A DNA stretch of 54,173 bases. Origin: a virus (taxonomy: Duplodnaviria; Caudoviricetes). The stretch covers positions 1 through 54,173 of IMG/VR virus record IMGVR_UViG_3300013101_000011; one strand, 5' to 3'. Both the position numbers and the translations under genes were made by a program. Below, piece by piece: positions 2,926 through 38,292 of the stretch. The notes under the pieces were generated by a model that saw only the letters and a list, made by a program, of their open reading frames with translations, did no database searches and was not told the DNA's origin. Each line of letters starts with the position of its first letter. The first letter of the stretch is position 1.

Positions 2926-3318
2926 TTATACATGATCCACTATTGCGGACTTCTTCCAGATCGGACTAGTTGCACCATCGTAGTCTGCAATACAGACATA
3001 CATGAATCCCGTATCCCAGGCTATATCACCTGCGGTGTCGCCTATCGCGCCAACGCCTGTTGCAGGGGTTCTAGTTGTGCTAATATTAATCGTGTCGGTA
3101 TCGAACACAATTATGCCGTTACCGTTTGCTGTTAGGGTTATATCTTCATCTAGAACAGATGGAGTGATATCATTAAGATTGAAAACTAGAGTGCTTGTTC
3201 CAATGCCGGTGATGTATATTTCGTCGAAGTTGTCATTAACTTTATCGAACGCGTCGCGGATAGGATCGCCGGTGTTGTCATTGGCGACCGTTCCTATATT
3301 TATTGTTTGCTGTGCCAT
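2926..3318 (-). CDS. Baseplate/tail protein with T4 gp9/gp10-like N-terminus
   Basis: N-terminal INIGTVANDNTGDPIRDAFDKVNDNF motif; GATAAATA upstream. Confidence 0.7.
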   Translation of the reverse strand: MAQQTINIGTVANDNTGDPIRDAFDKVNDNFDEIYITGIGTSTLVFNLNDITPSVLDEDITLTANGNGIIVFDTDTINISTTRTPATGVGAIGDTAGDIAWDTGFMYVCIADYDGATSPIWKKSAIVDHV

Positions 3319-3362
3319 TAGTTGTAATTACCTCTATAATTACAACTATTTATCGAGAATAT

Positions 3363-3692
3363 TTAAATAATAAACCGCTTGATTGTTACAGTTGGTGTGC
3401 CACCTTGTCCCCATAATCCAATTGGACGATCGGTAGCAATAGTACAAATGAATTCATCTGACCCACCAACTAGAAAACTTGTTGCGTCGGCCGCTGCTCC
3501 AATGTTGACTCTAAAAGGCCCAGTGCCAGTAATGTGTAAAACCACATATGTAGCGCCCGCCCTAGTGTTCGCAGCTCCTGGAATTCCTGCTGCTATATCA
3601 ACTGTTGTGTTTGCCCCAGATGTAATTGAAGCCTCTGTTAGTTCTAAGTATGTTGCCTTTATTGCGCCGGCGTACGCTCCGAAAATTGCCAT
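3363..3692 (-). CDS. Hypothetical protein, possibly virion
   Basis: 109-aa ORF coupled to the upstream gene by TAATG overlap. Confidence 0.6.
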   Translation of the reverse strand: MAIFGAYAGAIKATYLELTEASITSGANTTVDIAAGIPGAANTRAGATYVVLHITGTGPFRVNIGAAADATSFLVGGSDEFICTIATDRPIGLWGQGGTPTVTIKRFII

Positions 3693-4084: not shown

Positions 4085-4114
4085 AAGTTAAATCCTATTA
4101 TTTAACTTATTTAT

Positions 4115-4459
4115 CTATTTGCAGTTCTCAAGTTCATAATCGTAAATCCTCATCCAATCATATTCCCGTGCAGTAGTGACCACTCCGTCGCTATTGGTAG
4201 AACTGGTGATAGCAATACGAACAGCCACTTTCTCTTTGTGCCTGTTTGACTCGATGACCTGAACCCGGTCTCCTGTAATTACCATACATGCAACATCACC
4301 TTCTTTAAATTCGTGAGTGAATGTTGCCTGCTCTACATTAGCAAGTGCAATGAAAAAGGCCAGGACTAAGCCCCATACTAAAATCTTACCCCAGTGGTCA
4401 CAAAAGAATATGACGAATTCATAAAAGATCTCGTTAAGGTTCCTAAAAAACTTTTTCAT
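4115..4459 (-). CDS. Hypothetical membrane-anchored protein
   Basis: N-terminal hydrophobic helix; ATGA overlap with upstream gene. Confidence 0.6.
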   Translation of the reverse strand: MKKFFRNLNEIFYEFVIFFCDHWGKILVWGLVLAFFIALANVEQATFTHEFKEGDVACMVITGDRVQVIESNRHKEKVAVRIAITSSTNSDGVVTTAREYDWMRIYDYELENCK

Positions 4460-9470: not shown

Positions 9471-9561
9471 TGGTACTAGGCGGAGGAATCGAACCTGCAC
9501 CAGGGGGTTATCTGCCCAATCCGTCTATAAAACGGCCCACTCGCCACGAGTTACGCCTAGC
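9471..9561 (-). tRNA. tRNA-Ile(UAU), atypical, long variable arm
   Basis: Acceptor GCTAGGC/GCCTAGT; loop TT-TAT-AG; ~20-nt variable region; TTCGATT; ACCA. Confidence 0.7.
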
Positions 9562-10618: not shown

Positions 10619-10706
10619 TGGAGCCAACGGTCAGATTCGAACTGACGATGCCCTTTCGGATGAGGCTTACAAAGCCCCTGCATTCGACCGCTAATGCTAC
10701 GTTGGC
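10619..10706 (-). tRNA. tRNA-Thr(UGU), long variable arm
   Basis: GGGGC-TTTGTAA-GCCTC; variable arm with GAAA loop; CCA. Confidence 0.8.
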
Positions 10707-11540: not shown

Positions 11541-11626
11541 TGGCTCCAGCGGTAGGGATCGAACCTACGCTCCCGGGGGAGTCTGCGCATTAACAGTGCG
11601 AAACATTACCTCTCTGCCACACTGGA
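11541..11626 (-). tRNA. tRNA-Asn(GUU), long variable arm
   Basis: CGCA-CTGTTAA-TGCG; CTCC/GGAG variable stem; flanked by a GTATTTTGG/CCAAAATAC inverted repeat. Confidence 0.8.
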
Positions 11627-30601: not shown

Positions 30602-30650
30602 ATATTTATTTATATGCCATTTACCAATCTTGTATCTTTACTATCAAATT

Positions 30651-30823: not shown

Positions 30824-30914
30824 TGGTGGGACGGGCAGGGTTCGAACCTGCAACGGTGTTATTCACACTCCGGATTAAAAGTCCGGTACCTTCAGCCACT
30901 TCGGTCACCGACCC
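30824..30914 (-). tRNA. tRNA-Lys(UUU), long variable arm
   Basis: CCGGA-CTTTTAA-TCCGG; GTGT/ACAC variable stem; ACCA. Confidence 0.8.
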
Positions 30915-35067: not shown

Positions 35068-35541
35068 AATTAGTTATTCCTCGATGTATCCACGTTTTAC
35101 CAGGTAACCTCGAATCCACCAACCAATGCCGGCACCGATTGCTACGAATACAATTAATATTCCGATTGCCCATAATAGTTCATACATCATGTTTCTCCGT
35201 TTGTGTGGTTTGTGCGGGCAGATCATCTCCACAAAATGAGACGCATGGTTCAGGTACTGCCACGAATACTAGGGCGAGTATTACCATAAGTGTAAACATC
35301 TTAGTTCCTGTTCAAGTTAAAAATATGCAGGGACAGCGCCGAAGTCCATTCTGTGTCCCTTGCATGTTCCAAATTCTTCATATTATCTATAATACTAGAA
35401 TTCAGCTAATGGGTATTTTAGTTCCGTTTCATATTTATATCATCTCTTGGTATCTAATTTAATTAGGTGCCGCTATATTTTCGACATCGCATATCAGCCT
35501 CCTTGGTCGGCGTTAGGTTTAATACATATTACTACATCCAT

Positions 35542-35575
35542 AAAAAAAGAGCAACCCTTTTGGAGTTGCTCTTTT
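35542..35575 (-). terminator. Intrinsic terminator after the PTH2-like gene
   Basis: AAGAGCAAC...GTTGCTCTTTTTTT. Confidence 0.75.
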
Positions 35576-35580
35576 AATTA

Positions 35581-35943
35581 CTACGCAGATATTAACTTTT
35601 CTGCATCCTCGTCCGGCAGATACAGATTGTACTTGCGCATTACTTCTCGCTTCGCTCCATAAAGCGGCTCGGTGGCAATTGCAGTATAACCCGGCAAGTC
35701 CGGCTCGTAAAACATGCAATGATCGACTCCATGGATTCCGATCCTTTCGGACGCTTTAAGTAACTCAGCTTCATTCTCAACACCAAAAAGGATAAGGTGA
35801 AGAGGATGTTCCGGCTTTTCAAATTTCCAACCTGCTTCGTAAGTTGCATGAGCCGCTTGCACGATTTGCTGTGCAGCGGTCAAGTCAGTTCTTATAAAGA
35901 CATAGGTATACGGAATGTGGTCAGTGTTTTCTCTGAATTCCAT
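35581..35943 (-). CDS. Peptidyl-tRNA hydrolase 2 (PTH2)-like protein
   Basis: YVFIRTDL...QIVQAAHA...FYEPDL...TAIA pattern. Confidence 0.7.
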   Translation of the reverse strand: MEFRENTDHIPYTYVFIRTDLTAAQQIVQAAHATYEAGWKFEKPEHPLHLILFGVENEAELLKASERIGIHGVDHCMFYEPDLPGYTAIATEPLYGAKREVMRKYNLYLPDEDAEKLISA

Positions 35944-36320
35944 TACTTTTCTCCTTTTGCCTTAATCTCATCCAATTCACTGCGGATTCTTTCAAGCATC
36001 TCTTGCGAAATTGTTTCGCCAAAGGGTGCAAGTAAATAATCTTTTGTGTGAGGGGATTTGATGCTGTAAAACGCTCGAGCTAACTTGTACTGGTGTTCAG
36101 TAAGCTTGCCGCTATTCTCCGGAGTAGTCCAACCTTTGGTCCAGTCTCGGTTGCGTAAAATTGCATACAATAAAAAGTGCTGGGAGTCTAAAGGCTTCCG
36201 CGCCTTAGCCCATGCTTTGAATGCTGCTGTGAATTCCAGGTAATGTTCCTTTGATGTGAACATGTCGCCGGTTTGTGTTTCTTCGATTTGTGTCTCTTTT
36301 GCTTCTAAAAATGATAACAT
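35943..36320 (-). CDS. Hypothetical protein coupled to the PTH2-like gene
   Basis: GAGGA SD; TAATG overlap. Confidence 0.7.
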   Translation of the reverse strand: MLSFLEAKETQIEETQTGDMFTSKEHYLEFTAAFKAWAKARKPLDSQHFLLYAILRNRDWTKGWTTPENSGKLTEHQYKLARAFYSIKSPHTKDYLLAPFGETISQEMLERIRSELDEIKAKGEK

Positions 36321-36413
36321 GATTTATTCCTCAATAATTAATATGTTTCTGCAGAACCTTGCTGCAGGTAGCAGGATTATTCCTGCGATTAGTTTAGTCG
36401 TAATTCATATTAA

Positions 36414-36464
36414 CTACGGCGGATCATGTAGTGAAGGGACTTAGTTATCTGTAACTTTAATCAT
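36414..36464 (-). promoter_or_regulatory. Leader uORF MIKVTDN-(TAA)-VPSLHDPP-(TAG)
   Basis: GATAAATA then GAGGA SD; in-frame ochre at 36441-36443; Pro-Pro-stop; three hairpins before the next gene. Confidence 0.6.
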
Positions 36465-36540
36465 TTCAAATTCCTCTTGTTGTAAGTTATTTATCATCGT
36501 AAAATATAGTATACAGGTTTTCTATTCATTGTACACTATT

Positions 36541-36722
36541 TTGGTAAAATTTGGTAACGTGGGATGGATTCGAACCACCGTCCTCCGGGGCATTAACCTC
36601 GGGCTATTCCAACGCACAGCCGCAATCGATTCCTCGGGTCGCCTGATCGAGCTCGATACTCTACAGTGCAATCTTTGGTATTGGCCAGTACTCTCAGCTA
36701 CCACGTTACCAAATTTTACCAA
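36541..36722 (-). ncRNA. Large tRNA-like RNA (copy C) within a 22-bp inverted repeat
   Basis: TTGGTAAAATTTGGTAACGTGG inverted repeat; TAGCTGAGA; 12-nt palindrome at 36646-36657; GGTGG-TTCGAAT-CCATC; ACCA. Confidence 0.7.
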
Positions 36723-37057
36723 GTCGCGTACTTTTCAACGCGAGTTGGATACAAAGTGTTGCCACCGTTTGCCGCAGAAATGGCATCTTCAATCCAACGC
36801 ATACCATATGCCAATCTTGGCACAGCAAACTTTCCAATGTCATCGTCATGAACTGCAAAAAATAAATCAATGCGTCCACCAGGGCCGGAATCGTCGGGGT
36901 TGGTAGTTATTTGTTCCAGGTACTGCCCACGTGCTCCGAGATCCTCTAAGAGAAACTGTTCAAAGTCTTGTTCCTGACCTTCTTCAAGTGTTGTTCCGGG
37001 CCAAACACAAACCTGCGTATGCCCATCTGCCAATTGTACATTTTCAGTCTTGTTCAT
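36716..37057 (-). CDS. Hypothetical protein
   Basis: AGGAG SD; 113 aa. Confidence 0.65.
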   Translation of the reverse strand: MNKTENVQLADGHTQVCVWPGTTLEEGQEQDFEQFLLEDLGARGQYLEQITTNPDDSGPGGRIDLFFAVHDDDIGKFAVPRLAYGMRWIEDAISAANGGNTLYPTRVEKYATW

Positions 37058-37074
37058 TTCTTTCTCCTAGTAGT

Positions 37075-37150
37075 TGGGGGAATGGCCGGGACTCGAACCC
37101 GGGACCGGCGGAGTTAAAAGCCGCTGCTCTGCCAACTGAGCTACCAAACC
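37075..37150 (-). tRNA. tRNA with UUA anticodon (ochre-suppressor-like), mismatched acceptor stem
   Basis: 76 nt; canonical numbering gives GCGGC-TT[TTA]AC-TCCGC; U-U at 3:70 and 4:69; C73; CCA. Confidence 0.65.
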
Positions 37151-38292
37151 ATTCATTCTTCAAACTCGTGTTCGAATTCAATCTGTTCAAAAAGGTCATT
37201 GCGGTATTGATTTGGATCAAAGCAATGACGTCCTTTCAGATCTGTCGCTATCCACTTTTGACCATGATACTCTGACCGCTGTATGTTAAGAACGTGAACG
37301 TCTTTGTGAAACACTTCGTACCGTTCGTTCAATACATCGCCGGGAGGATCGTAGTGTACGATTGTTAGATCGCCACGCAGTTTAATAGTTAGATCAGTCA
37401 TCTCTTACAAACCTCGGTGTTATTTGGATGCATTTTGAACAACCAATAAAACCGTCGTCCCTAAGTTCGAGAGTGCCTGCATCTTCGTATGTTGGGCACT
37501 CGGTGCAATACATACCTAAATTATCAAATAGCGGGATGGCATGCTTTTCCCAAAAACTTGTGCCGCAATGTCCTTGGAGTTTTCCGTAAATGTCAACGTA
37601 ATGCTGAAAGCCGTGACTTAATCCAGGTTGCGGATTCTGCAATGTTTCGCCGTCAACAGGAGTGACCGGTATGTTGGAAACTCCTATTAAATAGTATTTA
37701 GTCATACCGTTTCCAAGTCTTTCTTGCAAGTAATTAAATGAGCAAAATACTTAGTGTCTTCATTGGCACTGTGTCCAAGTGGAAGATAATGATATCCGAA
37801 AGTATTCACTCCGCCGATATGTCCTGTATATTTATGTGGCGTTTCAGAATGGTAAATGTTACCAACATGAACGTCTACGAGGCGTACCTCGACCACTGTT
37901 TCGTAAGTAACCATATTCTCGTTACTCATTATCCTACTCCGAAGAATCGATCAGCTTCGTCTTGATCCATGGCCGATACTGCTTCAACAACATATCGGTT
38001 TAGACGATCAATCTCTCGTTGCTGGTCGCCCATAACAATTGAAATTGCTTCTTCTTTTGTGGCTCCCTGTGATTTCAGGAAGAGGATTTTCTTTTTCGCT
38101 TGCGCTTTTGCTGGGCTGTTGCTCATTTCGATTCCTTTTTGTCGAAGTCTTTAAAGACTTTCATCATTGCTTCTGCATACGCCACGGATATTTCCGCGCC
38201 AGGCTTTTCCATTAGTGCTTCGAATTCAACAACGAAGGCTGCCTTCATCTCTTTCAATTCGGGAAATCTTTTTTCTGTTTGCTCTGGGGTCA

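Follow-up and report, generated by a model that had tools for sequence, protein, structure and literature searches.

Translational attenuators such as those of ermC and cat combine a short leader open reading frame (ORF) with an RNA helix that masks the Shine-Dalgarno sequence (SD) of the following gene and has its 5' strand in or beside the leader, and a ribosome held on the leader opens this helix. The present analysis deals with a leader of related design in the viral record IMGVR_UViG_3300013101_000011 (Duplodnaviria; Caudoviricetes), of which the whole stretch of 54,173 bases was analysed and is called the window hereafter. The leader precedes two genes, one termed gene A and one coding a protein that resembles peptidyl-tRNA hydrolase 2 (PTH2-like), which together with the leader are referred to as the module. 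As in the erm/cat type, the leader ORF has its own SD, and a predicted SD-masking helix overlaps the leader in all 14 leaders that were folded computationally. However, the stall in ermC and cat needs a ribosome-bound antibiotic, whereas the stall site found here is located behind a stop codon and the stall is proposed to be built in as a Pro-Pro-stop sequence. Because the stall site lies behind a stop codon, the input of such a system would be whether this stop is decoded. We consider it probable that the leader acts as a translational attenuator of the erm-like type, with nonsense suppression by a tRNA of the phage itself as input.

Other described systems share single features with this locus. 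The regulatory peptide encoded by tnaC in the tryptophanase operon of E. coli responds to free tryptophan and blocks Rho; it ends on Pro-stop and its slow termination controls the downstream genes, but it has neither an internal stop codon nor a link to a tRNA. The gene prfB, coding release factor 2 (RF2), carries an early in-frame stop codon and its expression depends on how this stop is read. An earlier interpretation of the locus made from the letters only, the sequence-only reading, had drawn on prfB as a model. This analogy had to be given up, because prfB involves a +1 frameshift and its product reads the stop itself, whereas the frame behind the stop is in phase here, the products are a PTH2-fold and a helical protein instead of a release factor, and a dedicated matching tRNA exists. 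Finally, the 'code change modules' of recoded phages, as presented in the accessible parts of a preprint (bioRxiv 10.1101/2021.08.26.457843), also use a suppressor tRNA that permits the expression of genes with in-frame stops, which was suggested to serve for timing. Recoding extends there to many late genes and the codon concerned has largely ceased to act as terminator, whereas here one small module is gated, often via a leader. The window, which covers ~16% of its genome, shares with them the phage-encoded suppressor tRNA, but neither the many in-frame stops nor the loss of a terminator codon.

The single elements of the module, all on the minus strand (Table 1), agree with the sequence-only reading, which had placed an SD, an upstream ORF (uORF), TAA, Asp-Pro-Pro-TAG, two further hairpins, a gene for 125 amino acids (aa), the PTH2-like gene and a terminator in this order. 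It had also asked for a conserved uORF-stop-x(n)-PP-stop frame 5' of PTH2-like homologues, and such a frame was found. For the 120-aa PTH2-like protein, 23 relatives with identities of 46-88% were obtained from a large protein collection (24 matches with its own record), and the alignment of these relatives served to fetch 17 viral and 72 metagenome loci, i.e. 89 loci (L001 etc.), 75 of them non-identical. Most loci are parts of contigs of 50-350 kb, a size that suggests jumbo phages as their source. A composite pattern (SD, ATG, 0-16 codons, stop, 3-8 codons ending PP or DP, stop) has a single match on both strands of the window, which is the leader itself. The same pattern gave 29 matches on both strands of 707 kb of related loci; 17 of them are situated within 1300 nt upstream of a PTH2-like gene, eight further ones represent leaders situated 1343 nt upstream, in the loci L007, L008, L009 and L029, where a gene A homologue comes next in every case, and the remaining four (two distinct) occur elsewhere. 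When the Pro requirement was dropped, 27 two-stop leaders were detected upstream of the module, 19 of which end in Pro (PP 17, DP 1, SP 1, besides FT 7 and QA 1), compared to seven matches and none ending in Pro in the control space of the same scan.

The closest leaders read MKKVTDN-stop-TLSQHDPP-stop (L020), MTKVTHT-stop-INSIHDPP-stop (L021), MKVTDN-stop-INSNHDPP-stop (L030) and MKRVADN-stop-IHPIYDP-stop (L023), and in these four loci the uORF peptide and the position of its stop are kept. Among close relatives the Pro codons show synonymous changes and the final stops differ, too. The ending H/Y-D-P-(P)-stop is found in eight non-identical relatives (L020, L021, L023, L024, L030, L033, L034, L084), while shorter leaders of like design exist in distant loci, for example M-stop-IHINGPP-stop, ML-stop-MPNKDPP-stop, MHTQM-stop-MAPKHPP-stop and MKKL-stop-VRNKSPP-stop. 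In many other loci the PTH2-like ORF is gated directly, i.e. it begins with SD, ATG, 0-6 codons and TAG, continues in frame and has no ordinary start codon (MS-stop-IIDKNY..., MKKL-stop-ITDKNY..., ML-stop-IHHKTY...). Altogether a stop codon stands at the head of the module in 53 of the 75 non-identical loci, either in a uORF-stop-x(3-8)-Pro-stop leader or within codons 2-7 of the PTH2-like ORF: 35 loci have the direct TAG gate, 16 the leader gate and two both, 14 have neither and eight offer too little upstream sequence.

Two variants of gated arrangements were noticed beside these classes. A 'GFT' leader class, consisting of uORF, TAG, x-x-G-F-T (or R-P-F-T) and TAG, lies 5' of gene A homologues (L003 1729, L004 1968, L010 2017, L037 405, L040 272, L051 1006), and the PTH2-like ORF of these loci is also directly TAG-gated. 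In addition, an extra mini-ORF ML-stop-I... followed by a long GC-rich hairpin and a T-run precedes direct-gated PTH2-like genes (L072 ~2380-2470, L075 ~2380-2450, L068, L015 ~2020-2100), and the frame past its TAG crosses the hairpin. These hairpins might represent suppression-gated transcription terminators in series with the translational gate; a terminator scan found one terminator-like site in L075 and none in L072, which lends the idea weak support.

An argument for the proposed input is a tRNA gene with the anticodon UUA, which shares the strand of the leader, sits 610 nt upstream of it and was missed in the sequence-only reading. The tRNA(UUA) has U33, A37 and an encoded CCA, and a C31-U39 mismatch leaves an anticodon stem of 4 bp. 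In a second sediment-metagenome run (X2), contigs spanning 35500-36508 and 36522-37200 show zero differences from the window, although both runs possibly belong to one sampling campaign; because they are identical in these contigs, the TAA gate and the UUA anticodon are not errors of a single assembly. Among the relatives, tRNA(CUA) was detected by ARAGORN in 21 of the 89 fetched loci. Suppressors make up 20 of the 89 tRNAs in the non-identical loci and the tRNA nearest to the module is a suppressor in 17 of 33 tRNA-bearing loci, compared to two suppressors among 56 tRNAs in the complete genome of a relative (G002). Whenever gate and suppressor were found in the same locus, codon and anticodon fitted to each other, namely TAG with CUA in 16 of 16 cases and TAA with UUA in the window as the single case. 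Moreover, the TGA-gated leaders ML-stop-VYLQRPP-stop (L006) and ML-stop-VKSQSP-stop (L013) come from records that carry tRNA(UCA) genes, the complete 350-kb genome belonging to the TAG-gated L001 holds two tRNA(CUA) among 56 tRNAs, and no mismatch between gate codon and anticodon was seen among the cases compared. The closest relatives L020 and L021 are TAG-gated and have a tRNA directly 5' of the leader, which shares its D-arm with the window tRNA and shows CUA by standard numbering; the ARAGORN call for this tRNA in L020 is Arg(tct), its register being shifted by one base. Judged by this comparison of sequences, codon and anticodon have changed together within one clade.

Weakened stems are a side feature of the suppressor tRNAs in the window clade, since they occur in the window tRNA as well as in that of L020 (1875-1950), where 3 of the 5 anticodon-stem pairs are formed. 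A 2026 paper (PMC13092985) is said to deal with tRNAs having 4-bp anticodon stems and may be relevant to such weak-stemmed suppressors.

The sequence-only reading had assumed that read-through ribosomes alone reach the Pro-Pro-stop and turn the operon on, and had taken general termination failure as the input. Its logic is supported by the comparison, whereas its input is not: because the gate codon follows the suppressor anticodon, the competition of the phage's own suppressor tRNA with the release factor is the likely input. It appears unlikely to us that the leader senses a shortage of release factor or a general failure of termination without any phage tRNA, with near-cognate host tRNAs reading the TAA whenever release factor is scarce. 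The layout weighs read-through against termination, so low release-factor activity would also switch it on, and, according to the accessible part of one study, release-factor defects indeed alter attenuation by leader peptides in E. coli (PMC5373646). However, such a sensor predicts neither that the gate codon tracks the suppressor anticodon, as seen in three codon classes, nor the physical linkage to suppressor tRNA genes.

It is very unlikely that the stop codon is fully reassigned in this phage, which would make the leader an ordinary, always translated ORF of 15 aa without regulatory information. Recoded phages with suppressor tRNAs are known from the preprint mentioned above, as far as its accessible parts go, the window represents only ~16% of the genome (CheckV completeness), and a few homologous loci contain stops within the body of the PTH2-like ORF. 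However, TAA ends 38 of the 83 minus-strand ORFs of at least 80 aa in the window, and no TAA-gated long ORF was found in these 54 kb. In G002, 350 ORFs of at least 150 aa predicted under the standard code end 162 times on TAA, 156 times on TGA and 32 times on TAG, and its gate candidates (7 TAG, 8 TAA, 16 TGA), which are mostly noise, show no excess of TAG. As far as seen from their sequences, the window and G002 thus appear to use the standard code apart from the gate and not to be recoded genomes.

A tblastn search with the PTH2-like protein gave matches in 35 phage records, four of which were inspected. Ralstonia phage RsoM2USA (L092; ML-stop-ISDKTY...), Cronobacter phage GAP32 (L093; MAQ-stop-NEKTW...) and Acinetobacter phage ME3 (MT-stop-IHENKK...) possess a TAG-gated PTH2-like ORF and a tRNA(CUA) each, and all three are annotated with the standard code; the fourth record, Klebsiella phage RaK2, is considered below. 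No annotated feature lies under the match in RsoM2USA, the coding sequence of GAP32 is annotated in truncated form, and ME3 carries an annotated 'tRNA-OTHER, anticodon CTA' 430 nt upstream. Likewise, several records of Erwinia, Serratia and Yersinia phages have no feature under the PTH2-like match, and PHROG 34073 (77 positions) covers no more of the window protein than residues 50-108. These absent or C-terminal-only annotations and the short PHROG are probably due to the in-frame TAG close to the ORF start. A search of cultured-phage DNA returned tRNA matches alone.

The bases following the gate offer another line of evidence. A purine directly after a stop codon favours suppression over termination, and a purine follows the stop in all 54 gates compared to 143 of the 299 ordinary stops of the same loci. 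The codon following the gate is often ATT, ATC, ATA, ATG or GTG, hence termination at the gate followed by re-initiation on the next codon had to be considered. This next codon is a possible weak start in 35 of the 54 gates (ATT in 26), but it cannot serve as start in the other 19 (GTT, GTA, ACT and others; GTC in the window), and re-initiation leaves the match between gate and anticodon unexplained, which makes it highly improbable.

How a ribosome at the second stop could switch on the operon was not addressed in the sequence-only reading. It had seen the TAG in a hairpin; the TAG is indeed paired in the minimum-free-energy fold, but within a long-range helix with the gene A SD instead of a small local hairpin. 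In the window this helix comprises 18 positions with two mismatches, and its anti-SD strand consists of the Pro-Pro codons, the stop and the 8 nt behind it. The same arrangement was predicted for 14 of 14 folded leaders: the stretch from the Pro-Pro codons over the final stop to the bases behind it is paired with the gene A SD and the bases just 5' of this SD. Most relatives encode Pro-Pro by CCUCC, which is a perfect anti-SD. The arms outside the SD differ from locus to locus and are still complementary, for example TTAATATG / CATATTAA in the window, ATATCGT / ACGATAT in L020, TTAAGTGT / ACACTTAA in L015 and TAATAAAC / GTTTATTA in L014. Because the MAFFT alignment of the leaders lost the helix register, a cross-locus duplex test of the non-SD part was used instead of column covariation counts. 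Cognate arms gave a mean of -7.9 kcal/mol versus -3.6 kcal/mol for non-cognate ones, and the cognate partner was the best in 10 of 14 rows.

A ribosome footprint that was forced to be unpaired at stop 2 increased the predicted accessibility of the SD in 12 of 14 leaders, while it remained unchanged with the footprint at stop 1. In the window, the gene A SD is predicted to be unpaired with a mean probability of 0.30 both in free RNA and when a ribosome occupies stop 1, and of 0.76 when it occupies stop 2. Across the leaders the two stops are 18-27 nt apart, hence a ribosome that terminates at the first one is not expected to touch the helix. Of all structural features the helix has the best support, and one could imagine an RNA-only element that responds to another signal with the uORF frame being incidental, but this is barely plausible given that SD and ATG, the gate position, the Pro-stop ending (19/27 versus 0/7 in controls) and the purine after the gate (54/54) are conserved and that directly gated loci keep the gate without such a helix.

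For the attenuator gated by the suppressor tRNA, the following course of events can be proposed. In the OFF state, ribosomes translating the uORF would terminate at the TAA, 17 nt before the anti-SD strand, the helix would stay closed and the SD of gene A masked. In the ON state, the phage tRNA(UUA), which would have to be made, charged and able to read UAA, would decode the TAA and the ribosome would proceed eight codons into the 5' strand of the helix. There it would halt on Asp-Pro-Pro-stop and keep the helix open, the SD of gene A would be exposed and gene A translated, and the PTH2-like gene would follow by TAATG coupling, as the overlap of its start with the gene A stop suggests. A long dwell at stop 2 would turn rare read-through into a long initiation window for gene A. 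Asp-Pro-Pro and Pro-stop contexts slow peptide-bond formation and termination in E. coli, and the Pro-Pro-stop presumably stalls the ribosome at the leader as well. Slow termination at Pro-stop was reportedly described by Hayes 2002, Tanner 2009 and Peil 2013. The accessible part of a review dealing with stalling at proline (PMC13602936) yielded no comment on termination at Pro-stop. The conservation of the two-stop leader, the match of gate and anticodon, the covarying helix and the predicted rise in SD accessibility all come from comparison and computation.

Several observations weigh against the suppressor-gated attenuator. First, the tRNA(UUA) has U3-U70 and U4-U69 mismatches in its acceptor stem besides the one in the anticodon stem and may work poorly. 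Second, wobble allows an anticodon UUA to decode UAG as well, and the window leader has TAG as its final stop; a back-up in-frame TGA at 36407-36405, two codons past this TAG, is still located in the 5' strand of the helix. In L013 and the 'GFT' class, gate and final stop are even the same codon. Third, 14 of the 75 loci have no gate by the criteria used, and many rows in such counts are related phages, so that the counts do not represent independent events. The 14 loci include L001, where MTKL-stop is followed by 31 codons ending on ATGA at the gene A start, as well as L058 and L089, which are probable other gate variants missed by the criteria. Klebsiella phage RaK2 has a PTH2-like gene with an ordinary start; a pattern search found no tRNA(CUA) in RaK2, but this search was not exhaustive and also misses the tRNA of ME3. 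Finally, the helix does not behave uniformly: L017 and L043 lack the predicted rise in SD accessibility, 4 of the 14 leaders fail the cognate-best test, and the window uses CCG CCG as Pro codons with a predicted weaker masking (the 0.30 in free RNA). With CCUCC being a good anti-SD, the conservation of Pro-Pro could also reflect selection at the RNA level only. A look for RNA sequencing runs that contain the stretch yielded none.

Regarding the products, the 120-aa protein has a match to Pfam PTH2 (PF01981) with E 0.0054 and 17.4 bits, which is under the cut-off of 23. Its structural model (pLDDT 87) points to the Pth2 fold: in a Foldseek search of the PDB the top 10 and 12 of the 13 matches with E <= 0.002 are archaeal or eukaryotic entries of the Pth2 family, including 1wn2, 2zv3, 1q7s, 3erj, 1rlk, 1xty and 1rzw (E 7.5e-6 to 1.7e-3, TM 0.45-0.67). 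The catalytic residues of Pth2 are the Lys of a GK motif and the Asp of a DAG motif. A weak profile alignment (E 0.19) places the invariant D82 opposite the DAG Asp and Q25/Q26 opposite the GK-motif Lys; Q25 is invariant and Q26 nearly so. Gene A is predicted to be all-helical (pLDDT 86) and its homologues adjoin the PTH2-like gene in many loci, either upstream or downstream. No Pfam or PHROG match was obtained for gene A, and structure searches gave a best E of 3.1 with Foldseek against the PDB, a best Z of 4.4 in a wide VIA-align search, which is noise for helical proteins, and no hit above 0.85 in the ESM Atlas.

According to the accessible parts of two publications, the PTH2 of jumbo phages is of the archaeo-eukaryotic Pth2 type and was proposed to rescue ribosomes once tRNAs have been cleaved (Iyer et al. 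2021, PMC7824862; RaK2 paper, PMC3622015). For the gated module one might speculate that gene A and the PTH2-like enzyme clear by-products of suppression, i.e. peptidyl-tRNA, or limit the suppressor by feedback. Tentatively, suppressor tRNA and the stop-gated gene A/PTH2-like module could even form one self-measuring circuit of standard-code jumbo phages, in which the leader (in relatives one to three serial gates) reads the level of suppression and an enzyme acting on the peptidyl- or aminoacyl-ester of tRNA responds, either by set-point feedback or by clearance of peptidyl-tRNA; we regard this wider idea as possible but doubtful. If true, the suppressor tRNAs of non-recoded phages would be a regulated tool and not a relic of recoding.

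A leader control by suppressor-tRNA gating seems not to have been described before. In the full-text literature search, no paper was found in which a suppressor tRNA is connected with a PTH2-like gene of a phage or with a leader peptide of any kind. The word 'suppressor' does not occur in the accessible main text of PMC7824862 or PMC3622015, and the words 'hydrolase' and 'leader' are absent from the accessible text of the recoding preprint 10.1101/2021.08.26.457843, supplementary tables aside. If the suppressor-gated attenuator is real, it would represent a natural regulatory device that uses the decoding of a stop codon by a dedicated tRNA as input, and in which, for all three stop codons, changes of the mRNA codon would have gone along in trans with changes of the tRNA anticodon. 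It would give a testable reason for the presence of suppressor tRNAs in standard-code jumbo phages, and could explain why GenBank entries of cultured phages lack the PTH2-like gene or show it truncated. Since the module is present in growable phages such as GAP32 and ME3, the idea is directly testable. Moreover, the leader would be a compact and portable read-out of suppression efficiency, which may serve genetic-code engineering.

Table 1. Positions of the leader, its helix, the suppressor tRNA and the genes of the module in the window
Feature	Position	Strand	Basis or remark
tRNA, anticodon UUA (ochre suppressor type)	37150-37075	minus	ARAGORN tRNA-Stop(tta); Rfam tRNA 53.3 bits versus cut-off 29
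GATAAATA, putative promoter motif	36495-36488	minus	sequence reading and KATAAATA counts
GAGGA SD (7-nt spacer to ATG at 36464) and 7-codon uORF MIKVTDN	36477-36441	minus	sequence
Gate codon TAA ending the uORF, next base G	36443-36441	minus	sequence
In-frame read-through extension VPSLHDPP, 8 codons, ends TAG (36416-36414)	36440-36414	minus	sequence
Helix 5' strand: last Asp-codon base, both Pro codons, final stop, next 8 nt	36423-36406	minus	minimum-free-energy folds and cross-locus duplex test
Two local hairpins within the loop of the long-range helix	36386-36371 and 36367-36349	minus	folding
Helix 3' strand, ends in the GAGGA SD of gene A	36345-36328	minus	minimum-free-energy folds
Gene A, 125 aa	36320-35943	minus	predicted all-helical; conserved partner of the PTH2-like gene
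PTH2-fold gene (predicted fold), 120 aa	35943-35581	minus	start overlaps gene A stop as TAATG
Terminator-like 11-bp stem, 9-nt loop, then T-run	35575-35542	minus	read from sequence

The window has a GC content of 42%, its minus strand carries nearly all genes, and it contains 20 tRNA genes. In front of the leader, the motif GATAAATA may act as promoter. Its generalized form KATAAATA matches 16 sites of the window, 13 of which lie on the coding strand, compared to a shuffle mean of 7.8 with 1 of 100 shuffles reaching 16. The sites, among them 623-630, 3347-3354, 4108-4115, 30607-30614 and 35432-35439, are often found just 5' of gene starts, and KATAAATA is probably a promoter motif of this phage. 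We take the motif to resemble the T4 late promoter TATAAATA. The same motif also precedes the leaders of L020, L021, L023 and L006. Between the two strands of the SD-masking helix, close relatives have an A/C-rich linker in place of the two local hairpins of the window. At the other end of the operon, the terminator-like hairpin is not listed by the hairpin scan, which admits loops of up to 8 nt, and an Rfam match to SpF25 (27 bits versus a cut-off of 48) turned out to be merely this terminator hairpin.

Some observations on other RNA genes were made in passing. Four tRNA genes of the window are long for their type (86-91 nt; Ile, Thr, Asn, Lys; 9471-9561, 10619-10706, 11541-11626, 30824-30914), which suggests inserts or long extra arms. 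In the tRNA-rich phage locus L046, ARAGORN predicts a permuted tmRNA gene (3087-3473) ~1 kb downstream of the PTH2-like gene, i.e. another ribosome-rescue function. Finally, a structured RNA of ~180 nt is located between suppressor tRNA and leader in the window (36540-36720, minus strand). It is closed by a 22-bp stem, shows a tRNA-like T-arm, an acceptor strand and CCA at its end, and has a fold energy of -71 kcal/mol (z -4.9 versus shuffles). Standard ARAGORN and Rfam searches do not call it, and with introns allowed it is reported as a doubtful tRNA-Ile(aat) with an 87-nt insert.

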